Assembly: GCA_951406725.2 (NCBI GenBank)
Contig: OX597815.1
Span: 207,390,001 to 207,454,000, forward strand
Direction: 5' to 3'
DNA from: Octopus vulgaris
Taxonomy: Eukaryota
Length of the DNA stretch: 64,000 nt
Shown one piece after another: positions 1,540 to 59,722 of this stretch (positions are counted from its first letter, which is position 1; every line of letters begins with the position of its first letter). The translations under genes and the position numbers were made by a program. The notes below the pieces were generated by a model, which was given only the letters and a program-made list of their open reading frames with translations, had not been told where the DNA came from and did not search any database.

Positions 1540-2634
1540 GTTAGTAACAGAATGTCTTTTCATTGTCCTTATTATTATTATTACTACTACTACTACAAAA
1601 TGGTATTCATATTTCAGACTCGTGATTATTCATTAAATGTGTTTTTGTTTTTGTCTTTTTTTTTTCTTACAGGAATTTTTGAGATGTGCTTTTGAAATAT
1701 AATGAAATTAAAGCAAGAAATATTATCGTTCAACTCAGAGATTAACGCGTCTAAATTTAGTGGTCAGCTTATAATGATCACCTGAAAAATTCAAAACTAA
1801 AATAATTTTGGTTTATAAATGTTCACAAGTAACCTCAGATACGCAGCAACGCAGTTGTCAATATGATATTTCGGAGAGGACAAAAACTACAGTACTTTAT
1901 ATATCGAGTGTATAGATGTTCAATCTGGCTCTTAATCACCTTGTACTGTCTAACACATAACAATTTCTATATCAGATGCAGTATTGTAAATTAAGCTTTC
2001 TTTAGTGCCGAGAGGTTTTGATAGGCTTGAAGCAGAATTGAACTTGATCGTATCTAACAAAATCCTTGATTTAACATGGGTTCTATCAAGCAATTTTTTT
2101 CTATCAGACAATCTGAAACAAGAGCAAATACTCATATGGCGTTGTTTCTCTGTGTTTATGATTTTTGTGAATTAGATGGGGAAGCAGCGATAGAATAAAG
2201 AAAATCATTCAGGCTAAAGAAGTTCGTGGATCGATCTCGATTCGATTTCAATTTTTGAATGAAAGCAATGTTATTGTAATAGATACAAAAGTGACCCACT
2301 CGTCAATAATTTATTTAATGTGTTATAATTATGTTCTAATTATTTGAAACATTCACATGTAAGTGTTCTTGACTACTAACGGCGGGTCACTGGTTGTTAT
2401 TCCATAACCACCGTCATGGCTGTGGTTAACTCATTTCATCTGGTCTAGAACAGTTGCAATGTTGTGATAATGTAAACCACTGTTAGTAGTATAGACGCTG
2501 TATTGTCAAAGAGCATATTATTAGCGGATTGGAAATACAGTGAACGATTTTGACACAAACAAATATAAAAAATTTTCATAAGCGAAATTTAATTTTTATA
2601 TTTGTTTTCACAAACAAATATAGACATTTTTTCA

Positions 2635-3035
2635 TAGGCGTGGGAGTGGCTGTGTGATAAGTAGCTTGCTTTCCAACCACATGGTTCCGGGCTCAGTCCC
2701 ACTGCTTGGCACTTTGGGCGAGTGTCTTCTATAGCCTCGGGCCGACCAAAGCCTTGTGAGTGAATTTGGTTGACGGAAACTGAAAGAAGCCCGTCGTATA
2801 TATATATATATATATATATATGTTTGTGTGTCTATGTTTGTCCCCCAACATCGCTTGACAACCGATGCTGGTGTGTTTACGCCCCCCGTTACCTAGCAGT
2901 TCAGCAAAAGAGACCGATAGAATAAGTACTGGGCTTACAATGAATAAGTCCTGGGGTCGATTCGCTCGACTAAAGGCGATGCTCCAGCATGGCCGCAGTC
3001 AAATGACTGAAACAAGTAAAAGAGCAAAAAGAGTA
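2635..3035 (+). mobile_element. tRNA-derived SINE family A, full length
   Basis: A-box-like GTGGCTGTGTG and B-box-like GGTTCCGGG..AGTCCC head, internal (TA)n, tail GACTGAAACAAGTAAAAGAG; more than 10 copies in the window. Confidence 0.9.
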
Positions 3036-6872: not shown

Positions 6873-7262
6873 AGTGGCTGTGTGGTAAGTAGCTTGTTTA
6901 CCAACCACATGGTTCCGGGTTCAGTCCCACTGCGTGGCACTTTGGACAAGTGTCTTCTACTATAGCCTCGGGCCGACCATAGCCTTGTGAGTGGATTTGG
7001 TAGACGGAAACTGAAAGAAGCCCGTCGCATATATATATATGCGTGTGTGTTTGTTTGTCTGTGTTTGTCCCCCTTAGCATTGCTTGACAACCGATGCTGG
7101 TGTGTTTATGTCCCCGTCACTTAGCGGTTCGGCAAAAGAGACCGATAGAATAAGTACTGGGCTTACAAAAAGAATAAGTCCCGGGGGTCGAGTTGCTCGA
7201 TTAAAGGCGGTGCTCCAGCATGGCCGCAGTCAAATGACTGAAACAAGTAAAAGAGTAAAGAG
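6873..7262 (+). mobile_element. SINE family A
   Basis: Near-identical to the 2635 and 39033 copies. Confidence 0.9.
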
Positions 7263-9243: not shown

Positions 9244-9646
9244 TGTGTGTTTGTGTGTGTGTACACATATATATATATACTCATTGATACATGTATTTAC
9301 TGCCTACCCTCCCTTGAAGTTTAATCCCACCTTAACACCTTCTTAGAACTGCTCTCTGATCCCTCACTAACTTCCAAACTCCCAATCGACTGAAAAGACC
9401 TGTTTTTTCACTATTTGAACGGGTCTTTCACTTATTTCTCTCTATCTTGACGTACCCAAGCCGACATCTACCCGTCTATTCAAGTTTTCTTCATACACTA
9501 ATACCACCAGTCTCCTTTTCTCTCAGGCCGCCTGGTACTTCTTCATCAGGCCTGGATTTCTTCGAGAGTTCGTTGTTTGACTCTGTTTCCACTAAGTCTA
9601 TTTATTTGAGTTCGTATCAAACCTCAACGATATTAAAATCATAGAA

Positions 9647-10607
9647 TAGGCGCAGGAGTGGCTGTGTGGTAAGTAGCTTGCTAACCAACCACATGGTTCC
9701 GGGTTCAGTCCCACTGCGTGGCATCTTGGGCAAGTGTCTTCTGCTATAGCCCCGGGCCGACCAATGCCTTGTGAGTGGATTTGGTAGACGGAAACTGAAA
9801 GAAGCCTGTCGTATATATGTATATATATATAAGTGTGTGTGTATGTATTTGTGTGTCTGTGTTTGTCCCCCTAGCATTGATTGACAACCGATGCTGGTGT
9901 GGTTATGTCCCCGTCATAGGCGCAGGAGTGGCTGTGTGGTAACTAGCTTGCCTACCAACCACATGGTTCCGGGTTCAGTCCCACTGCGTGGCATCTTGGG
10001 CAAGTGTCTTCTGCTATAGCCCCGGGCCGACCAATGCCTTGTGAGTGGATTTGGTAGACGGAGACTGAAAGAAGCCTGTCGTATATATGTACATATATAT
10101 AAGTGTGTGTGTATGTGTGGGAGTGTTTGTCCCCCTAGCATTGCTTGACAACCGATGCTGGTGTGGTTATGTCCCCGTCATAGGCGCAGGAGTGGCTGTG
10201 TGGTAACTAGCTTGCCTACCAACCACATGGTTCCGGGTTCAGTCCCACTGCGTGGCATCTTGGGCAAGTGTCTTCTGCTATAGCCTCGGGCCGACCAATG
10301 CCTTGTGAGTGGATTTGGTAGACGGAGACTGAAAGAAGCCTGTCGTATATATGTATATATATATATATATATGTGTGCGTGTGTGTTTGTGTGTCTGTGT
10401 TTGTCCCCCTAGCATTGCTTGACAACCGATGCTGGTGTGTGTTTACGTCCCCGTCACTTAGCGGTTCGGCAAAAAGAGACCGATAGAATAAGTACTGGGC
10501 TTACAAAAAAGAATAAGTCCCGGGGTCGAGTTGCTCGACTAAAAGGCGGTGCTCCAGCATGGCCGCAGTCAACTGACTGAAACAAGTAAAAGAGTAAAAG
10601 AGTAAAG
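9647..10607 (+). mobile_element. Tandem array of SINE A: two 3'-truncated units (9647-9916, 9917-10180) and one full unit (10181-10607)
   Basis: Identical junction GTCCCCGTCA|TAGGCGCAGGAG occurs twice. Confidence 0.92.
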
Positions 10608-10835
10608 AGATGCATACTCTTGTCTGTGAAACCTACGAATTAGTTATACTCGAACTCCCTCGCCTATTCTCAACAGAGGAATAGATGCGAATAAGCTTAC
10701 ACTATTATGCATTCTTACACAAACATACACAAACACACTATACATTCACATTGCTTTGTTGAGACGGTTATTACGCTTTCTTTATATTTCCACCAGATTG
10801 ATAAAGAGCAAGAGGCTCTTGACTTGGTTTGTTTT

Positions 10836-11040
10836 TTTCTTTTACTTGTTTCGGTCATTTGACTGCGGCCATGCTGGAGCACCGCCTTTAGTCGAGCAAA
10901 TCGACCCCGGGACTTATTTTTTGTAAGCCCAGTACTTATTCTATCGGTCTCTTTTTGCCGAACCGCTATGTGACGGGGACGTAAACACACACCAGCATCG
11001 GTTGTCAAGCAATGCTAGGGGGACAAACACAGACACACAA

Positions 11041-11090
<50 letters not shown>

Positions 11091-11254
11091 GACAGGCTTC
11101 TTTCAGTTTCCGTCTACCAAATCCACTCACAAGGCATTTGTCGGCCCGGGGCTATAGCAGAAGACACTTGCCCAAGATGCCACGCAGTGGGACTGAACCC
11201 GGAACCATGTGGTTGGTTAGCAAGCTACTTACCACACAGCCACTCCTGCGCCTA
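10836..11254 (-). mobile_element. SINE family A (-), inverted partner of 10181-10607
   Basis: Reverse complement of the family consensus, ending CACTCCTGCGCCTA. Confidence 0.92.
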
Positions 11255-11413
11255 TGGTATGGTTATTAAATATATTATTTGAAGTAGGGAATGTCGGTGT
11301 TGGGGAATACAGCCAAGATTACGATCAGGAATGTTGCTCTAGCAAATCCCAAAATGCAACCATCAGTGAAGATTCTATATATAATAATTATATATAAATA
11401 TATGGAATAATTA

Positions 11414-15345: not shown

Positions 15346-15419
15346 CTTATAATAATAATGATAAAAATAATAATAATAATAATAATAACAATAATAATAA
15401 TAATAATAATAATAACGAT

Positions 15420-16025
15420 AATTTGTCACTGCCCTTCTTCATCATTTCTGGGGCACCTACAACAACAGGGATGGTTTTGGTTTTTAATTGCCACGTCTTA
15501 GATATTTCAATCTCAAGGTTCTTATATTTCGACAGTTTTTCAAATTCCTTTGCCGAGATGTTTCTATCAGAAGACACTATCATATCAATTAACAGGAATG
15601 TTTTTTGTCTTAGGTCTTTGATAACGATATCTGGTCGGTTATCATTTATTTGCCTGTCTCTATGTATCTCATAATCCCATAGGATGGTAAAATTCTCTTC
15701 CCCAGTGACTGATTCTGGATGGTATTCATACAAGTTTTTAGGGTGCAAGATATCATAGTGACAGTATACACTCCAGTGCAAGTATCGGCCAACTCGATTA
15801 CGCCTAGTTTATGTTCTATAGGGCAAAGACTGAACAAACAACAACAATGTGGTCAATTCTCTCTAGTTTATCATTCTAGAGTATACACTTTGTGTTTACC
15901 TCATTGCGTATGAGATTGGCTTGATAGGTCCGAGTGAGGAAACTCTGACCCTTGTTGCTATGATAAATCCTTTTGTTTCGGCTATCAAACTAGCACTATG
16001 TAGCCACTGATGAGTCCTCATATCT
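15420..16025 (-). pseudogene. R4/Dong-like non-LTR retrotransposon fragment (C-terminal region with restriction-like endonuclease)
   Basis: Minus frames THQWLHSASLIAETKGFIIA... and ILWDYEIHRDRQINDNRPDIVIKD...LLIDMIV...EKLSKYKNL...IPVVVGA (RPD..D..K..KY RLE motif); frameshifted; abuts (AAT)n. Confidence 0.85.
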
Positions 16026-21929: not shown

Positions 21930-22340
21930 CAGGAGGAGTGGCTGTGTGGTAAGTAGCTTGCTTAAGAACTACATGGTTCTGGGTTCAGTCCCACTGCATG
22001 ACACCTTGGGCAAGTGTCTTCTACTATAGCCTCGGGCCGACCAAAGCCTTGTGAGTGGATTTGATAGACGGAAACTGAAAGAAGCCTGTCGTATATATGT
22101 ATATATATATATATATATGTGTGCGTGTATGTTTGTGTGTCTGTGTTTGTCCCCCTAGCATTGCTTGACAACCGATGCTGGTGTGTTTATGTCCCCGCCA
22201 CTTAGCGGTTCGGCAAAAGAGACCGATAGAATAAGTACTGAGCTTACAAAGAATAAGTCCCGGGGTCGATTTGCTCGATTAAAGGCGGTGCTCCAGCATG
22301 GCCGCAGTCAAATGACTGAAACAAGTAAAAAGAGTAAGAG
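21930..22340 (+). mobile_element. SINE family A
   Basis: Matches the family consensus over its full length. Confidence 0.9.
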
Positions 22341-23742: not shown

Positions 23743-23773
<31 letters not shown>

Positions 23774-23778
23774 CAAAG

Positions 23779-25793
23779 GAAAATAAGAAAAGGTAGAAAA
23801 TGCTAAAATAATTTTATAATGAAATACATTTTGTAACGGTTCGTACCGGTTTTTGTCTTTTCGACTTTTTCAACTAGGAGTAGAACGAAGGTGGATATTA
23901 AGAAGAAAAACTATTTATTTGAAGAAAAAAAATCAAATGAAATGTTTTGTATATATTTTCATAATATTCAAATAGGTGGGACATTTTCCTTTTTTCTTTC
24001 TCTCTTTTCTTTTGTGAAGGCTCGTAAGGTAGGTAGTAGCAGATCTAAAAAAAATGTATTTATCGGTGTAGAGATATACTTGGTTCTGAAGTTTGATGGT
24101 GTGAGCAGCAGCAGCAGAAGAAGGCGAAAAGTAGGGGAAGGGGAAGAGGAAGAAGAAGAAGAAGAAGAAGAAGAAGAGAGGGAAGAGGCAGAAGAAGTGA
24201 AGTAGAAGAAAAAAGACGGGAGTGGTATTACCCAGTAGTACAGGCATTAACAACTTCGATTCTTCGACATCGTCATTAAGAAATCCAACAGAAACATAGA
24301 AATAGACATAGAAAAGCCCACTGATTCCAAGCAATATCTATCATTCAACTCATACCACCCAAGACACACTAGATTAAATATCCCTTTCAACCTGGCCGAA
24401 AGAATTTGCACTATAGTATCTGATACAAGCACCAGGGACGCATGACAACATGAACAAAAGGTTACCCACCATCCATAATTGATATCGGTTTTCAACGTGC
24501 CCTACAACTTTACATCCACGAACTAAAGAATGAATTACAGCTAAAAGCCTTACCGTACATATCCACACACAACACGTAAACAATGAGACCTTCGACACCA
24601 TCCTCCAGAACATTCCTTTACTAAAAGGGGACCAGAGAATTAATAAAATTCTCCAAACGCACACCATCATAAAGAGCAAAAGACAGCCCAAGTCAATGAA
24701 AAATATTCTAGCACATAGCCAAGGACACTCGTCAACAACATCGAAGCCGGTAGTAAAAAAATGCGAAACACCTACTTGTAGTATATACGTCAACCTAATT
24801 GAGGGATCGGTGTTGTTCAAACAGAGTCAACGTTTTACAGGGAAAAACAACTTTACATGTGTTTTGGAGAACCTAATATATGTGTGAACTTGTTCAGGGT
24901 GTCAAGAGTAATACATTGGTCAAACTAAAAACAGTCTACGCCAGAGGATGACAGTACATAGGTCCCAACTTAAAATACGCGAATACAGGAAAAATAACAT
25001 TAAGTGAACACATCGATATTTACACTACGAATGAACAACCCAATTTCGTGATAATGCTTCCTACTATCAGCGAATTAGTAAAGAATCATATTTTATCGCA
25101 AAATATAACCTCTTTTTAATGCTTGCACCACAGATGACACTACCTTAGGGATCTTAGAATAATAGCCACAGAAATATTAAATACGATAGATATATTAACA
25201 GTCGTTTCCCACGAATTTATTTAGAACAGTTCCTGCTATTACTGCTGCTACAACCACAACATGTCACTTTGAGGTTACTTGACCATTAAAGTAAATTCCA
25301 CGGAGAGCTTCTACTACTGGATAATACCGCTCCCGTCTTCTTTTCCTTCTTCTTCTTCTTTTCCTTCTTCTTCTTCTTCTTGTTTTCCTTCTTCTTCTTC
25401 CCCTCCTTTTCGCCTTCGCCGTCTTCAGCTGCTGCTGCTGCTGAAACCATTAAACTTCAGTACCAAATATATCTCTGCGCCCATATATACAATTTTTCAG
25501 ATCTGCTACTACCTACCTTACGAGCCTTCGAAAAAACCGAGAGAGAGAGAGAGAGGGAGAGACAGACAGACAGACAAACTGAGAAAATAGAAAAATGCCT
25601 AACATCTTTGAAGACTATGGAAATATTTACTAGACATTTCATTTAATTTTATCTTTTAATAGGTTTTCTTCTCAATATCTACCTTTGTTTTACTCAGTCG
25701 AAAAAGTTGAAAAGGAAGAAACCAGTACTAACCGTTAAAAATGTAATTTCGTGATAAAATTATTTTAGCATTTTCTACCTTGTCTTATTTTTC
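23779..25793 (+). mobile_element. Decayed 5'-truncated Penelope-like element with inverted pseudo-LTRs (about 23779-24240 / 25312-25793)
   Basis: RT thumb remnant KPTDSKQYLSFNSYHPRHTRLNIPFNLAERICTIVSD (about 24310-24425) and GIY-YIG remnant FTCVLENLIYV*TCSGCQE*YIGQTKNSLRQRMTVHR (about 24850-24965). Diverged inverted arms of about 460 bp; TA-rich microsatellites on both sides. Confidence 0.9.
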
Positions 25794-25824
25794 ATATACA
25801 TATAAGCTTGTGTGTCACTTTTCA

Positions 25825-34662: not shown

Positions 34663-34864
34663 ATGGAAAATTGGCAAGTTCGGTCCGTGCACTTCGGAAT
34701 GTGGCGGAGGAATGCAATATCGACGTGTCGAGTGTGTTCAGGGAAATCAAGAAATCAGCAGAGTCGTCGACAATAATCTATGTCCCCTACCACATCCAGC
34801 CAGCGAACAGACGTGCAACAATCATAAGTGTGGATCTTTGTGGTCCGTTGGTCTCTGGAGCCCA
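34663..34864 (+). CDS. ADAMTSL1: ADAMTS-like exon B, TSP1 repeat
   Basis: ctatctctAG acceptor. WKIGKFGPCTSECGGGMQYRRVECVQGNQEISRVVDNNLCPLPHPASEQTCNNHKCGSLWSVGLWSP. Donor CCA|GTAAGT, phase 0. Confidence 0.93.
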
Positions 34865-35025
34865 GTAAGTCGTTTATGTTTTCGTGTAGTTTTTTTTTTT
34901 CTTTATAAGATTTCGAATCTGTTTTTTTGTTGTTGTTTTATTGTTTATGATACAGTAACACTAGAGCGAATATCTTTTAAAATAATTCTCACATTATTTA
35001 CTGCTTCTGTAAAATGAAATAAAAT

Positions 35026-35376
35026 ACTCTTTACTCTCTTTTTACTCCTTTACTTGTTTCAGTCATTTGACTGCGGCCATGCTGGAGCACCGCCTTTAGT
35101 CGACGTAAACACACCAGCATCGGTTGTCAAGCGATGTTGGGGGGACAAACACAGACACACAAACATATACACACACATACATATGTATACATATATATAC
35201 ATATATATACATATATACGACGGGCTTCTTTCAGTTTCCGTCTACCAAATCCATTTACAAGGCTTTGGTCGGCCCGGGGCTATAGTAGAAGACACTTGCC
35301 CAAGGTACCACGCAGTGGGACTGAACCTGGAACTATGTAGTTCGTAAGTAATCTACTTGCTACACAGCCACTCCTA
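35026..35376 (-). mobile_element. SINE A (-) with internal deletion
   Basis: ...CGCCTTTAGTCGA|CGTAAACACACC junction removes roughly 80 bp of the consensus. Confidence 0.88.
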
Positions 35377-35394
35377 CGATGATGATTCAAAAAT

Positions 35395-35575
35395 TATTTT
35401 GGCACAAGACCAGCAAGTTCGGGGTAAGTCGATTAAATCGACTCCAGTACTCAACTGGTACTTATTTTATCGACCCTACAACGATGAAAGTTCGCCTCGG
35501 TGGAATTTGAACTCAGAAAGTAGAGACGGGCGAAATGCCGGTAAGCATATTGCCCGGCATGCTAACGATTCCGAT
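35395..35575 (-). mobile_element. SINE B (-), degenerate
   Basis: CAACTGGTACTTATTTTATCGACCC...GGAATTTGAACTCAGAA. Confidence 0.75.
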
Positions 35576-35611
35576 TATTTACACATATCTACTACTTTCA
35601 CGCGGACGAAG

Positions 35612-35646
<35 letters not shown>

Positions 35647-35708
35647 ATACTACCACTACCTCCACCACCACCACCACCACCACCACCACCACCACCACCA
35701 CCACCACC

Positions 35709-35764
<56 letters not shown>

Positions 35765-35775
35765 CACTTCTACTA
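35612..35775. repeat. (TAC)n/(CAC)n compound trinucleotide microsatellite
   Basis: Direct inspection; source of the poly-Thr/Val/Tyr ORFs. Confidence 0.95.
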
Positions 35776-35994
35776 TTGCTGCTGCTGATGATGACCGACG
35801 TTTTACACCTTTGCGGTTGTAATTTCTATGGGCTAAAAGATATTTTCTGGTCTCCACTTTAAGTATGGTGACCTATACGTATTTTTTGTTGATAATTTTA
35901 ACTCTACTACTTGGAATCATGCAAACTTGAGGGTGTGTGTATGTGTGTGTTCGTGTATATATGCATATAATGTGTATACATGTATATATATATA

Positions 35995-36041
<47 letters not shown>

Positions 36042-36061
36042 ATATATTTTGTGTGTGTGTA

Positions 36062-36168
36062 TGTGAAGGCGCATGGACCGGTGGTTAGGGTATTTGGACT
36101 CACGATCGCTAGATTCCGGCTTCCATTCCCCGACCGAGTGACGCGTTGCGTTCCTTAGCAAAACACTG
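36062..36168 (+). mobile_element. SINE C-type tRNA head fragment
   Basis: GTGAAGGCGCATGGACCGGTGGTTAGGG...GCGTTGCGTTCCTTAGCAAAACACT. Confidence 0.65.
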
Positions 36169-36170
36169 CG

Positions 36171-36201
<31 letters not shown>

Positions 36202-37895
36202 GTATATATATATATATACGGTTTGCTGCTTCACAAGATTATACAACATCGTTTCCATTATTCAACTGAATATGGCTCACATGATTCTCCAGATTAGTCG
36301 ACAGCTTGTTTAGCAAAGCTAATTATTTTTTTCCCATCGGTGTACTTATATTATGAAATAAAATTTATTAAGAACATTTGTCAGCAGCCGTAAACTTCCA
36401 AAATATATTTCGTAAGCAGAAAGCATAATAATTTTTCAGGAATTAAATCAATTACTTTAATGAAAGTGGGACAGGATGTTATTATATTCCTCTTTCACGA
36501 TCTATTTCTTCTCATAAATATACATATTTAAGTCACTTAATGACTAGAGAAGGAATGTTGTCGATCTTTGAGGAATTTGTGAAGGAGTTAGAAATAGGAT
36601 CAGACTGTAATAGGCTTTTATCCATTCTATCACAGAAAAGAAAAACAAGTAACAAATTCTTTAAGTATTATCATATCTACCATTTACTGTTCAGAAGATC
36701 TTAATGAAGCCTACCATTGTAAGATTGTTAAACATTGTAATCTATTTAGAGTCCACATAGCAAATTAGTCTTCAGGTTCGTTCAAATATAAAACGATAAT
36801 TTTAGATTCACTTTTACTGAAATCAAAATGTATTCTCTCTATAGCGTAGCAACAGAATAATCTTTTGCTAGGAAGAACGGTCATCATGAACATTATCGTT
36901 GTCGTATCATCGTCATCGTCTGACAGTTGTTTACCATTTGATACAAGATATTTATCATAAAGTAATTATGGCTGGTAACTTTAATAATTATGTACGATTA
37001 GTATAGTATTTACTTCAATAAATACGTTGCTACGTTTTGATAATGCCACGTAATTTTAAGACTGTGTGAACACACACGCACACAGTAAGTTTTTCTCATT
37101 GCTATATGAAAATCAGAGAACCTAGTTTATTCTGGAGCATACTGGACAATTCGGGTGAAATACTAGCTTCCAGATTAAAGAAGCACTAATATAAAGATCA
37201 TTACATTCGCTTTACCTGTGTTATACAGAGCTACATTATTCTATGTTTCCTTCCGTTTTTCAAGAGTGTAAAGGTAATGGTAAAGGTACACTGTAATTTG
37301 AGTGATATTCAGTTACTATTTTTAGCATATCTGGTGACCACCTTGAGACTCTTTCAGTGTTTTGTATAAAGATCCTCGCAAGAATTTCTTGATAAATTTG
37401 AACAACCCTAGATTTTGTAGCGAAAAGTATACTTTGAGTTCCAGCATATTCTTTTCCGAAGAATATATTGAACTAAGAAATTTACCTCTGTACTACAATA
37501 TCCAATGCATTTTTTGAATAGTTATTTCTTCCAATGAGGCAAAAAGTTTTTAAAAGAGTGAAACAGAAATTTGTGCTAGTAATGCATTTCCTACGGACAT
37601 CAAAGGTTTAATTATATGATACAGTCTTAAGGTAAAGATCAAGACGATGCTAAAAACTCGGCTTACAGAGACTTTAAGCATTGCTTACATTGTTCGCCAC
37701 CTTACTTAACAATTGGAAATATTGTAGACGAGTAATTCAATATGACATTTGAATATTTTATTTATATCTAAAAGGCAACTTCTTAAATATGTTGCATAAT
37801 ATTTTTTTTATAAATATATTCCCTACATTGAATTGATTTAAATGAATATCGATAAATGCATTTCTTTTAAATGTGACCAAATGAAAACATTAATT

Positions 37896-37929
<34 letters not shown>

Positions 37930-37957
37930 GCGAGAAAGAAGCAACAAGAATGGATAG

Positions 37958-38053
37958 GTTTTTAGTACAATCGTTTCATACAAGGACAGGCTTTATTAAA
38001 AGTTGCAAAAATTACAGCATATAAACGTGTCCCGTACTCATCAGCTAAAATAC
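37958..38053 (-). ncRNA. Type I hammerhead ribozyme, inverted copy
   Basis: Reverse complement of 38715-38810 (TCATCAG at 38038-38044). Confidence 0.75.
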
Positions 38054-38714
38054 ATGTGAGTTCTCTAGACATCCTAGTGGTTGAGGCTATACTCATGAAG
38101 TAATGTAGATAATTAAGTAACATAAACAGATTTCCAAAGTTCATTACAGTAACATAAACAGATTTCCAAAGTTCATTCTCTGCCTCTCTAGAAAGCCCTT
38201 CAGCCTTTAAAAGTTAAATAGCTACAGCCTCTTGTAAATAGCAGTAATGTGATTAATGTGGCAAATACCTAATCATATAACAAGAATTGATACCTACCTC
38301 ATGTGTTCAACCATTGATAAATTTATCGCCTGTGAATATGAAATTCCTCTTCATTTCTCTGGAAATTTACATCTACACCATTGGAAATTGTGCATCTATA
38401 CAAAGGATTAATTCACCCTCTCTGTAATGCTAATAAGCAGGAATTGAGACCCACCTCGTTGTGATTAACAATGGATAAATTTGTCGTCTGTGAGTATGTA
38501 ATCCCTCCTCATATCTCTGGAAATTCATATGTGCACTATGGATTAGGTCACCTTCTCTGTGATGCTATTAAAACTTTTTTAAAATTCTGTGATAAGACTG
38601 TACATCATCTTTAAAGAACTTTAATGAACTTTGGAAATCTGTTTATGTTACTTAATTATCTACATTACTTCATGAGTATAGCCTCAACCACTAGGATGTC
38701 TAGAGAACTCACAT

Positions 38715-38810
38715 GTATTTTAGCTGATGAGTACGGGACACGTTTATATGCTGTAATTTTTGCAACTTTTAATAAAGCCTGTCCTTGTATGAAACGATTG
38801 TACTAAAAAC
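38715..38810 (+). ncRNA. Type I hammerhead ribozyme (sense to the host gene)
   Basis: Stem I TTTTAG(38718-23)/CTAAAA(38803-08); CTGATGA 38724-30; stem II GTACGGGACA/TGTCCTTGTAT; GAAA 38791-94; minimal stem III AC-GATT-GT; GUA cleavage triplet 38800-02. Confidence 0.78.
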
Positions 38811-38957
38811 CTATCCATTCTTGTTGCTTCTTTCTCGCTTATAATCACCCCACATTACTGTATTGTTAAAACACTATAGTTTTTTTTTGGTGCATCTAAG
38901 TTAGGTACCATATTCAAGTAAATTCATTTAAATTAACTTGAATCTTTATTGCTTTTG

Positions 38958-39032
<75 letters not shown>

Positions 39033-39036
<4 letters not shown>

Positions 39037-39459
39037 CGCAGGAGTGGCTGTGTCGTAAGTAGCTTGTTTACCAACCACATGGTTCCGGGTTCAGTCCCAC
39101 TGCGTGGCACCTTCGGCAAGTATCTTCTACTATAGCCTCGGGCCGACCAAAGCCTTGTGAGTGGATTTGGTAGACGGAAACTGAAAGAAGCCCGTCGTAT
39201 TTATGTATATATATAACTATATATATGCGTATGTGTGTATATGTTTGTGTGTCTGTGTTTGTACCCCTAGCATTGCTTGACAATCGATGCTGGTGTGTTT
39301 ATGTCCCCGTTACTTAGCGTTTCGGCAAAAGAGACCGATAGAATAAGTACTGGGCTTACAAAAGAATAAGTCCCGGGGTCGAGTTGCTCGATTAAAGGCG
39401 GTGCTCCACCATGGCCGCAGTCAAATGACTGAAACAAGTTAAAGAGTAAAGAGTAAAGA

Positions 39460-39460
<1 letters not shown>
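39033..39460 (+). mobile_element. SINE A inserted in (TA)n, about 130 bp upstream of the exon C acceptor
   Basis: Full consensus with (TA)n on both sides. Confidence 0.92.
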
Positions 39461-39510
<50 letters not shown>

Positions 39511-39590
39511 TTTAAATGTATTTTTCTTGTTTTTGCAATTTATAGGTAATTTAATATGTTTTTTTTTCTTTCTCATTTTTCATTTCATAG

Positions 39591-40412
39591 TGTTCTGCAA
39601 GTTGCGGTCCAGGACGCATGAAACGAAGTGTAGTATGCACAACTAAAATGTCAGATGGTCGTCATTTACCTATAAAGGAACATATGTGTAGATCGAACAA
39701 ACCAGAAACTGCAAAACCTTGTTATACGAAGGCGTGTAAAGTTGATGCTAAATATATTCCCTTAATTCGCTCAGAAAATCTTACCTTTATTCAATTAAAG
39801 CAGGTTCCATCTATAAACGTAAGAGTCGGATCGAACGCTATCATTATTCCAAAGACGCGAGTTACAATAAGATGTCCAGTAAAAAACTTCCCACCACATA
39901 TAGTTAACTGGAAAAAGAACGACTATATTTTACCATTATATGGTCGTGTACGTAAATCTATGAAAGGAGCTTTGAAAATTCGTTATTCGATAGCAGAAAG
40001 AGATGCAGGAACTTACACATGTTTTGCAGGTTCTCTACAAGCCAACTCTTCAATTCAGTTCCAGACGTTGAAGAAAGCTCAAAAAATCGCTTCAGCTTTT
40101 AACTCCGCCGATGAGGATTTACAGACTAATGTGAAGAAAAATTACAAAATGTCTCCCGGAATTATAGCTGATGCGAGTGGAACTCGGCACAAAAAAGTTC
40201 AGTTTTTGACCAAAAAATGGTCTCCCTGTACCGTTTCATGTGGCTCTGGTACACAGATGAGAGAAGTGGACTGTGCAATAAAAACTGATAGTTATTTAAA
40301 GTTGTACCCAGATTCAGAATGTTTGAGAGCTGGTTTACAGAAACCTGGAACTGTTCAAAAATGTGTAGAAATGCATCAATGTCCAACATGGAAAATTGAT
40401 AACTGGACAAAT
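39591..40412 (+). CDS. ADAMTSL1: ADAMTS-like exon C: TSP1 + Ig (I-set) domain + linker + TSP1 (274 codons)
   Basis: catttcatAG acceptor. CSASCGPGRMKRSVVC...FIQLKQ...VGSNAIIIPKTRVTIRCPV...IVNWKK...LKIRYSIAERDAGTYTCFAG...WSPCTVSCGSGTQMREVDC...CPTWKIDNWTN. Donor AAT|GTGAGT. The Ig and its lead-in resemble, from recall, the first Ig of ADAMTSL1/ADAMTSL3; the paralog cannot be resolved. Confidence 0.95.
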
Positions 40413-41787
40413 GTGAGTACATTTTAAAACACATTTTTCATCTTATTAATTGCTATGTCAATCCTTCTTTTCTTTGTCTCAGTTTTTCTTGTGTGAAATC
40501 ACGAATATGCATTATCTCCTATTCTGATTCACAAACGAATCGCAATTACTTTTCAGTATTTTAGTTCATTGTCTAAGCCCCTTAAATTCATTTTTGCCAT
40601 GGAAAACACATGGTACAACAACATTCTCATGCTTCGGTAAGCCGTAACAGCAAAACAAATCAAATTTCTGGCCCATTGACGTGATTCTCGCTCGCTCGGC
40701 CTTTTCCACCGTTACTACATGGCTTTTGCTTCTCAAAGTTGGTTGGTCTCGTCATCTCCACTCAAGCATTCCCAACTTATTCGTCTTACCTTTTCCTGCC
40801 AGTGAGATCTTGTCCAGTGCCATCCAATTACCTGTGCTAATCCCTAAGCTGATTCTACCACCCCAGAACATTGGCTGTTCGGAATTTCCTCCTTCCTGTT
40901 TATTCAACAGCTGTGGGTTTTCAAGAAGAAATGTTCACTACGCCGATCTCTTCCCATCTCGTTGAGCTTGAAAAGATCATATTAACAATTTCTTCCTCTT
41001 AACCAAAAGAATGAAAGCATCTAAACCATCTTCAACCCCGATATTTCGGTTGTAAAGATTTCTACCATGGTGCCAACTCGGAAGCATTTGTCTCACATTT
41101 CACTTATTCGCAATCATTGTATTGCATTTATGAAGACTCGCTGCCTCATCCACACCGTCTTTGAATATCTTTCATTTGTGAAGATTTTAAAGACAAGCTG
41201 CTGTGTATATTAAACCATATTCATTAATATATAACAGAAGTCAATAAATATATTGGTAAACAAAAATTCACTAATAACCTTCAATCCAAACTGTTCAGAT
41301 CGGGTAGGATTTATTTGTGAATTCTAACTCTAAGCAATTCACTTTACCTTGGCTGTCAGAATTTAAGTCTTCAATGGGTACTACTCATATGCGTAGCATA
41401 AAATCTCTCCATGAAAAAAATTTGCTCCTGGTTTCAGTTCGGTTTGCCTTCAGCCATCAGAACTCGACGGAATCGGGATTAGTCCTACTCAATGTAATTG
41501 AACCCGGGCATAGCACTAGGAAATAGCTACATGTTTTTTTAGATTGGTTTACTTTTTGGTTGTGTATTTTACTTTCTCAGAATTATGATATAAAACGAAA
41601 CGAGAAACCGGTCTTCTGAGATGCAATAATTAGATGTTTGTATTTTGCGAAAGCCGTTAAAAAAATATTCTGCAAGAAATATTTCATCTCAATGTTCACA
41701 CACACACACACACACACAAACACACGAATTAAATTCGATTTTATAGCCATGACATTTAAGCTAAATTTAATTTTTACACGATTTCAG

Positions 41788-58463: not shown

Positions 58464-59722
58464 CGGAGAGGGGCTGAAAAGTTCACAGGGACTATAAAGG
58501 GGTGACGCTAGAGCTGTGAAATCTTCCCTGCATTAATTTCAACTCATCTTATTAAGAACTGGCTTGTTTCTTTCCAGGTAAACTTATTTCTTTGGAAGAC
58601 GTCAAAAGAAACAAGTATCAACTTCTGTTAAAAATGGACAAAATTTGCCATCGTAGTGTTATCACGTACCTGCAGAAAAAAGGTTTGGCCGCCAACGACA
58701 TTCATACTGACATATTTGCTACATTAGGGAATGTCGTTCCATCTTTATAAGCGCAAAAGTGAGCAGCTAAATTTAGGATGAGGAGGGAGAGTCTTCATCA
58801 CTCAAGATCTAGACGTCCTGCAGCTGCCGCCACCGGGGAAAACATTAATCGTGTTCATCACATATTGACGGATGAAAGGCGATTGACTATATATCAAATA
58901 GTCATGGCTGTTAGTATAACCCGTATGAGAGTTGAGAATATTCTGTTTAATAAACTTGGCATGATGAAGGTTTCTACTCGGTGGGTGTCACGGCTTCTGA
59001 CACCTGATCAAAAGTGCATCAGGCCGATCATATCATGGGAAAATCTGACGTTGTTTGAGGCAGATCCAGAAGGTTTCCTTGAGTGTTTCCTAACCCAGGG
59101 TGAGTGTTTGGTTGATCACTTTGAGCCAGAGTCAAAACGACAATCCTTGCAGTGGAAACATCCCTCCTCACCTCCTCCAAAGAAGATCAATGTCGCATCT
59201 TCAGCAAGGAAAGCGATATCCTCTATTTTACGGATGTAAAAGGGGTTGTGCTTATTGACTATCTTCAAAAGGGCCACACCCTCAATGGAAAGTACTATGC
59301 CAACTTGGTAAGGCAGTTACAAAAGGTTATAAAAACTAAGCGCCAAAGGAAACTGATGAAAGAGATGTTGTTTTATCAGGACAGTGCTCCTGCACACATC
59401 TTTGTGTTCGATGGCTACTATGCGCAACTGTAGCTTTGAACTGGTTGACCACCGACCCTATTCTAATTTGGTCCCTGTGACTATCATCTGTTCTCCAACA
59501 TGAAAACACAATTGGCTAGTAACCTGTGTTGCAGTGATGGTGATGATATATGTTGTTGTTACTAGTTGCCTTTGAAGTCTTTGAACAGTCAGATGTCAGT
59601 TTACCTGGGGACAAAAACAATGTAGTTATTAATAAGGAAAATTGAAATGAATAAATGCAGGATTTCACAGATCTAGTATCACTTCTTCATAGTAAGCCTA
59701 TGAACCTTTCAGCCCACCCTCG
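58464..59722 (+). mobile_element. Decayed full-length mariner transposon (about 1.26 kb, irritans-like TIRs)
   Basis: TA|CGGAGAGGGGCTGAAAAGTTCA ... TGAACCTTTCAGCCCACCCTCG|TA degenerate TIRs with TA target duplication. Confidence 0.9.
58634..59620 (+). pseudogene. Mariner transposase pseudogene
   Basis: MDKICHRSVITYLQKKG..., RWVSRLL (WVPxxL), TQGECLVDHFEPESKRQSLQW, IDYLQKGHTLNGKYY, YQDSAPAH, then PYS..CDYHLF; stops, frameshifts and loss of the first catalytic Asp. Confidence 0.9.

Follow-up and report, generated by a model that had tools for sequence, protein, structure and literature searches.

An intron of a madd-4-like / ADAMTS-like gene carries a hammerhead-bearing element with long inverted arms, which probably goes back to a single young insertion, into (TA)n, of the 3' end of a very abundant Penelope-like family. 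On this reading the inverted arm likely arose at integration, and the predicted masking would be incidental, not a means of controlling the ribozyme. The family is assigned to the Penelope-like elements (PLEs) putatively, from its structure, no RT or GIY-YIG ORF being linked to this truncated copy.

Organization of the element and its host intron

The host gene shows 83% identity to the madd-4-like gene of Argonauta hians, which makes an octopod the likely source of the DNA, and contains TSP1 and Ig domains. The features referred to below are listed with their coordinates in the window, by which we mean the whole 64-kb stretch of DNA analyzed.

23763..25804, + strand: older decayed Penelope-like element with inverted-arm layout, in an upstream intron of the same gene
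34880..39590, + strand: host intron, between exons at about 34664-34879 and 39591-40421
37899..37928: (TA)15, left part of the microsatellite target
37930..38146, - strand: left arm, a 5' inverted copy of the pLTR-like terminal segment, complementary to 38622-38838 throughout
37960..38050, - strand: mirror hammerhead motif, core from 38044, cleavage base 37966
38148..38177, - strand: second short inverted piece of 30 nt repeating the start of the arm, with 2-3 nt of microhomology (38175-77) to the start of the body
38175..38621, + strand: body of the 5'-truncated family copy; in runs X1, X3 and X9 the summed depth is high from 38175 onward and contigs have loose ends before 38175/6
38622..38843, + strand: sense terminal segment (pLTR-like), to the family's shorter 3' end
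38718..38808, + strand: type I hammerhead motif with a 2-bp self-complementary stem III, predicted cut after A38802
38844..38960, + strand: optional 3' extension ("tail") of approximately 115 nt, repeat-family sequence by summed depth, at the right end only
38961..39034: (TA)37, right part of the microsatellite target

The arms at 37930-38146 and 38622-38838 are exact reverse complements (217/217 nt) lying 475 nt apart, and the inverted repeat grows to 226 nt once 2 mismatches are allowed. These data bear out a first-pass annotation of this DNA, which had described an apparently perfect 217-bp inverted repeat with two core-intact type I hammerheads, one per strand. The distances it gave also agree with ours: the antisense arm was placed about 475 nt upstream of the sense arm, and the end of the unit about 750 nt before the acceptor, whose AG at 39589-90 lies 752 nt after 38838. 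The bounds it set for the unit, 37930..38838, were too narrow, because the element continues to approximately 38958-60 and the second tract (TA)37, and contains the extra inverted 30 nt at 38148-38177. The arm at 37930-38146 is antisense to the host pre-mRNA; it reaches no further than the shorter of the two family 3' ends, next to (TA)15. In the assembly this inverted 5'-truncated copy adjoins the 5' end of the body, and the flanks of the inverted repeat are not mirrored. The flanking (TA)15 and (TA)37 represent an AT-rich/(TA)n target, as in Penelope-like insertions.

Scanning of six frames of the element revealed no informative ORF and no Pfam match above threshold, the copy being 5'-truncated, and no tRNA was found in 37800-39600. 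A sub-threshold Pfam match to DUF223 in a frame of the arm was rejected. The body contains two degenerate internal repeats, 38277-38436 and 38433-38571, of approximately 79% identity (about 107 nt at 79% plus 32 nt). Contigs of the family show a 32-33 nt skip at 38433-38469 as well as alternative letters before 38463, suggesting subfamilies.

The hammerhead motif

The + strand motif satisfies the conserved core CUGANGA ... GAAA ... NUH. Stem I is formed by 6 bp between 38718-23 and 38803-08, and the core consists of CTGATGA at 38724-30 and GAAA at 38791-94. Stem II opens with G38731-U38790 and has 7 contiguous pairs, 23 in the whole helix. Stem III is the near-palindromic ACGATTGT at 38794-38801, with 2 bp, followed by the cleavage base A38802. 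A topology scan of the 64 kb matched only this copy and its - strand mirror, and 100 dinucleotide shuffles of the window yielded 0 matches when these stem lengths were required and 0.19 per shuffle under looser limits. The bare core pattern had 19 database matches (14 metagenome, 5 viral), 0 of them with comparable stems and none with real similarity to the element, and core-pattern scans of genome contigs and of a second viral set gave 0 matches. The metagenome contigs L001 (- strand near 99), L013 and L014, which are unrelated to one another, share 11 identical letters before CTGATGAG and have GAAACGATTGTA downstream, and L001 carries a 134-nt direct repeat at the CTGATGAG/GAAACGATTGTA site; these three sites may be hammerheads of another topology.

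The Rfam hammerhead search put forward in the first-pass annotation came back empty: no hammerhead match was obtained in the window at the gathering score, and the 5 matches at E<=10 in 37800-39000 were at chance level and did not include a hammerhead. The long helix II probably exceeds the Rfam hammerhead models. The usual G10.1-C11.1 pair is absent, its place being taken by the G38731-U38790 wobble, at which there is no family variant of at least 5%. Folded without constraints, 38710-38820 does not exceed shuffled sequences in stability (z 0.48).

In the available portions of PMC4209133 and PMC6765202, the type I hammerheads of PLEs resemble this motif in the 6-bp helix I, the intact core, and a 2-bp helix III with 8 self-complementary nt for which a dimer is predicted to be more stable. 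They differ in that the motif described here has G-U instead of G10.1-C11.1, a GUA site and no Rfam match, lacks the extra base between 9 and 10.1, and has a helix II of approximately 23 pairs. A branch-point-like CTCAC and an acceptor-like TTTTAG occupy 38708-38723, ending exactly at the 5' strand of helix I. The pLTR intron of D. virilis Penelope ends at helix I, as given in the accessible text of PMC4209133; the spacing of the two signals here is short (12 nt), and they may be due to chance.

The repeat family in public sequencing runs

Of the sampled words of 38147-38960, 70-87% were present in 20 of the 24 runs listed (7 studies, three organism labels), among them runs of just 43-141 million letters; none of the runs with these words is recorded as RNA. 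Contigs were aligned from four of those 20 runs, the large runs X1, X3 and X9 and run X4; X3 is by guess DNA and X4 by guess RNA, and X1 and X9 are unlabelled. The number of contigs aligned to the element was 4345 for X1, 1326 for X3, 762 for X9 and 182 for X4. Summed depth was very high across 38175-38958, a figure that is not a copy number. The family is very abundant in three organisms as judged from these public runs.

The loose ends of contigs served to locate the family's limits. Ends with pyrimidine-rich letters occur before 38175/38176 in X1, X3 and X9, and X4 has loose ends before 38186; because of the ends before 38175/6, we conclude that other copies reach further 5' and that the present copy is truncated. 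Behind 38843, the loose ends of 20 contigs of X1 and 9 of X9 are (TA)n. Summed depth drops by approximately 40-55% after 38846, yet it stays high to 38958 in X1, X3 and X9, and (TA)37 follows. The (TA)n ends together with the continued depth indicate two family 3' ends, at approximately 38843 and 38958, about 115 nt apart.

Within the arm the family varies at 14 places (variants of at least 5%), and both arms carry identical letters at 14/14 of them, so that one template and one event are likely. The strand-change joint is absent among the joints listed and 38147-38174 has zero depth, neither of which is evidence either way. In X4, variants at 38448, 38531, 38533, 38687, 38694, 38870 and 38873 reach 30-60%, compared to 1-8% in the large runs, which suggests that most of the RNA stems from a minority subfamily. 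A loose end in X4 carries the 3' half of a diverged hammerhead with a perfect palindrome.

An older element with the same layout

The older Penelope-like element has an inverted 5' arm at 23763-24240 and a 3' arm at 25312-25804, 75% identical to one another, with (TA)-rich flanks. Between the arms is a truncated coding remnant (approximately 24300-25050) with RT-end and GIY-YIG-like frames. The GIY-YIG match (E=0.0028) is below the Pfam cut-off, and Atlas leads to HTH_animal and GIY-YIG clusters had scores <0.9. A 117-aa frame gave no homologue at E<=1e-5, and a 47-aa piece gave no Pfam match. Homology between this element and that at 37930-38960 was undetectable, local scores lying within the shuffle range. 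Both Penelope-like elements in the host gene (2/2) are sense-oriented with inverted arms. A GAAACC(G/A)GTA-like remnant is found near the 3' end of both arms of the older element, without an intact hammerhead core, and approximately 35 nt of extra sequence precedes the TA-rich array at its 3' end only.

A model for the insertion

The model starts from a family that extends 5' of 38175 in other copies and has two 3' ends beside (TA)n. Following published Penelope biochemistry, an RT/GIY-YIG protein would nick the AT-rich target, and reverse transcription would start at two internal sites of one RNA. The cDNA from 38958 to 38175 would yield the sense copy with its tail, and the cDNA from 38843 to 38622 would enter in inverted form, joined via the 30-nt restart and 2-3 nt of microhomology. 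The identity of the arms at all 14 family-variable places would likely reflect a single template.

Each component of this layout has a counterpart among known PLEs. As described in the available text of PMC8557442, PLE insertions are 5'-truncated and often have an adjacent inverted 5'-truncated copy that forms inverted repeats; their pLTR contains hammerheads, a tail of 30-40 bp is often confined to one end, and a (TA)n target bias is described there for Naiads. According to the accessible portion of PMC11167929, reverse transcription by a lizard PLE protein, which also cleaves AT-rich DNA, begins from two internal positions, and this accounts for the PLE tail; the hammerhead of that element was active only when the protein was present, and read ends at its cut site were not detected. 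The element thus shares with EN+ Penelope-like units (Penelope/Poseidon, Neptune, Nematis) the 5' truncation, the inverted 5' copy of the 3' end, the one-ended extension, the AT-rich/(TA)n target and a type I hammerhead near the 3' end; it differs in that the copy has no ORF remnant and in a tail of approximately 115 nt compared to the published 30-40 nt.

Judged from sequence features (family extent, 5' truncation and layout), the young Penelope-type unit proposed in the first-pass annotation is supported, whereas its alternative of a retrozyme-like unit fails on tandem layout and size. Its view of the inversion as unusual, or as a device, is not supported: the available text of PMC8557442 presents inversion as a standard PLE outcome, and it recurs in the older element. 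The element illustrates a known layout cleanly, its tail exceeding the published length; this helps annotation without being surprising. In the literature searched we found no description of a PLE hammerhead family from octopus or other cephalopods; supplements, repeat databases and most subscription papers lay outside that search and may list the family. The insertion layout is known, and the octopod hammerhead family is apparently undescribed and likely new.

Predicted folding and masking of the ribozyme

The predicted fold of the host pre-mRNA contains all 217 arm-arm pairs, and enforcing the hammerhead costs approximately 143 kcal/mol. The antisense arm is transcribed first, and by prediction 99 arm-arm pairs are available before the first base of the hammerhead emerges. 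The earlier proposal that the antisense arm is made first and captures the sense arm is in keeping with these predictions, both in the 99 early pairs and in the energy difference. The arms would pair co-transcriptionally, and the hammerhead would then be unable to fold, the arm-arm duplex being predicted to block it.

A related question is whether the hammerhead needs to be masked. For the unmasked monomer at 37 C, the predicted probability of the hammerhead fold is 2.5e-3 when the motif is folded by itself and 1e-5 to 2e-4 within four longer sense contexts; it is lower still at 18 C, tertiary contacts not being counted. Stem III is predicted at +2.4 kcal/mol as a monomer hairpin and at -5.8 as an 8-bp duplex between two copies, and the dimeric fold at -31.6 compared to -21.0 for two monomer folds. 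At 38796, a family variant found at 19-22% in the three large runs turns stem III into a perfect palindrome. From these predictions the hammerhead would work as a dimer. An unmasked lone hammerhead would still cleave little, since stem III would be unstable in the monomer and would pair between sense copies.

The published PLE motifs with short helix III show low or no activity as monomers and low activity even as dimers (available portions of PMC4209133 and PMC6765202). In mammalian reporters, slow intronic hammerhead cleavage was compatible with splicing and a fast ribozyme was not (accessible text of PMC2995048). Because a lone intronic sense copy has no partner in cis, the monomer fold is predicted to be rare, and slow cleavage is compatible with splicing, we consider that the mask is probably not needed. 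Of the claim that masking is needed to prevent cleavage, the part that stands is that the duplex is predicted to block the hammerhead; the need itself is put in doubt by the rarity of the fold in the unmasked monomer (1e-5 to 2.5e-3, as modeled). Nothing on antisense masking of PLE hammerheads was found in the literature searched.

Together with the dimer predictions, variation within the family fits with the ribozyme being kept by the mobile family for tandem transcripts. None of the 8 variant places within the hammerhead span touches the 34 core and junction-stem positions (p approximately 0.02); pairing is kept or improved at three, two are unpaired, and the remaining three disrupt pairs in the distal part of stem II. 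None of the 8 is matched by a change at its pairing partner.

Probable A-to-I editing of the family RNA

The table of family differences has 39 rows, 32 of which were also seen in the large runs. The other 7 are specific to X4, and all are A>G on the ribozyme strand, at 38567 (30%), 38746 (35%), 38748 (23%), 38755 (18%), 38756 (38%), 38794 (5%) and 38807 (20%). At these sites the large runs have zero depth of the variant letter for five and traces for two (6.67 and 375 in approximately 1.1 million, X1 only). No T>C change is specific to X4, though the arm has 85 T compared to 63 A (p approximately 0.006 if the sites are independent). The pattern resembles A-to-I editing and points to X4 being RNA, and on the evidence of this one run the family RNA is likely edited. 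The 5' neighbour of 7/7 sites is A or U, which is a weak indication since the same is true of 68% of all A.

The location of the sites bears on which structure would be edited. All six sites in the arm lie inside the 91-nt hammerhead, which holds 27 of the 63 A of the arm (p approximately 0.004), and no X4-only change is found in the T-rich 38809-38843, despite the highest X4 depth there. Within the hammerhead fold, one of the six is a bulged base and the other five are paired; four are in the long helix II, and one is the core A15.1. Because the A>G changes are on one strand, clustered in the hammerhead and absent from 38809-38843, a symmetric duplex is disfavored as the main source of editing, and the data from this run suggest that editing targets the hammerhead's own fold rather than the arm-arm duplex. 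When the sense strand is folded by itself without constraints, 38794 and 38807 are rarely paired (0.10 and 0.04), which would favor a longer duplex or a dimer.

A potential concern with the editing signal is its source: it comes from the unstranded contigs of one run from another individual, in which changes below 5% are hidden and clustered sites are not independent. One arm only was used as the reference, so the edits apply to the family and are not assignable to this locus. X4 is also enriched for minority family variants, which leaves a rare genomic subfamily some residual probability as the source of the A>G changes.

In our model the duplex in the host pre-mRNA is likely treated like other intronic inverted repeats, being edited by ADAR and removed with the intron. 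The X4 editing lacks the two-strand pattern that arm-arm duplexes would give and counts against this last step. Similarly, the description of the duplex as an ADAR substrate in the first-pass annotation is upheld insofar as the family RNA is likely edited, but the one-strand, hammerhead-clustered edits are unlike those of a symmetric duplex. An edit at A15.1 would be expected to impair hammerhead cleavage, and would more likely disable cleavage than release it. The proposed gating of cleavage by editing, in the sense of switching it on, is unlikely, because core adenosines would likely be struck as well once editing had become heavy enough to open the duplex.

Published systems provide a partial parallel. 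The available text of PMC3681739 describes inverted Penelope copies as a source of double-stranded RNA, with siRNA from the inverted regions, and that of PMC5625713 reports heavy editing of Penelope in lizard and a high level of hyper-editing in octopus. The element resembles these dsRNA sources in having inverted arms within one transcript, with long duplexes predicted, and in its likely edited family RNA; it differs in that its editing is one-stranded and clustered in the hammerhead. No paper joining hammerhead, Penelope, ADAR and editing was found in the literature searched. If the editing signal holds, it would tie retroelement ribozymes to the strong A-to-I editing known from cephalopods, and would allow a direct test of host control of Penelope hammerheads by editing. 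A tentative and rather unlikely extension is that ADAR edits the hammerhead fold in the family sense RNA (A15.1, helices I and II), tuning or disabling self-cleavage, which would represent natural A-to-I editing of a genomic ribozyme, with the inverted arms perhaps also filtering intronic copies.

Other explanations for the inverted arms

With the same origin, the mask might matter as a selective filter. Sense intronic copies would then survive mainly when an inverted arm covers the hammerhead, with unmasked copies cutting or disturbing the pre-mRNA. We regard this as improbable. Masking is predicted to be complete and early, both Penelope-like elements in the host gene are sense-oriented with inverted arms, and the family keeps its hammerhead core positions, all of which speaks for such selection; but two elements are too few to establish enrichment, inverted arms are common in PLE insertions whatever the place (PMC8557442, available text), the monomer hammerhead fold is predicted to be rare, and the hammerhead-like remnant of the older element has lost its core. 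Xenopus retrozymes, in the accessible part of bioRxiv 2026.07.22.740005, point both ways: they are depleted from introns, but approximately 42-44% of copies are still intronic.

The perfect inversion could in principle be an assembly or library artefact, arising from a fold-back read or a mis-joined high-copy repeat. The 217/217 identity and the missing strand-change joint among the joints listed are what an artefact would give, and such structures trouble assemblies (PMC8557442, in the portion available). An artefact would not account for a left arm that ends at the alternative 3' end of the family, with (TA)n beyond it as in other copies, for the unmirrored flanks, or for a junction with a 30-nt restart and microhomology. 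Nor can a fold-back read have produced the older inverted pair in this gene, whose arms are 75% identical, and a single-copy joint can vanish among thousands of family contigs. We consider an artefact quite improbable, and retain a single PLE insertion as the preferred explanation.

A DNA transposon, such as a MITE, that has terminal inverted repeats of 217 nt, a TA target and, by chance, a hammerhead would explain long perfect terminal inverted repeats that flank a non-coding core beside TA, but is highly improbable given that family contigs 5' of 38175 continue into pyrimidine-rich letters rather than the inverted arm, and that the family runs approximately 115 nt past the right arm, the unit not having been amplified with fixed arms.

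Just as improbable is a non-LTR retrozyme monomer deposited in inverted form. Metazoan non-LTR retrozymes (available portions of PMC7229834 and bioRxiv 2026.07.22.740005) are likewise non-coding, with a type I hammerhead and high copy number, and a preprint derives animal retrozymes from PLE pLTRs, but in the known ones small units (220-240 bp in coral, 331-353 nt in axolotl) are repeated head to tail, whereas the unit here is at least 784 nt, with no head-to-tail joint within 38147-38960 among the joints listed and no head-to-tail hammerhead array in the 64-kb window.

Neighboring repeats

Two further frames in the window are presumably transposon fragments. The 153-aa frame at 15347-15808 (- strand), which we take to resemble the restriction-like endonuclease end of a non-LTR retrotransposon, and the 158-aa frame at 58763-59239 (+ strand), which we take to resemble a fragment of a mariner-type transposase, each gave no Pfam match. 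A SINE-like dispersed family is abundant in both orientations, with copies at 39035-39460, 2633-3029, 6873-7254, 9633-10599, 10832-11275, 21934-22330, 35102-35400 and elsewhere. At 9630-11271 its members form inverted pairs of 92-96% identity, 400-1200 nt apart, and the host gene therefore already offers many intronic duplexes.
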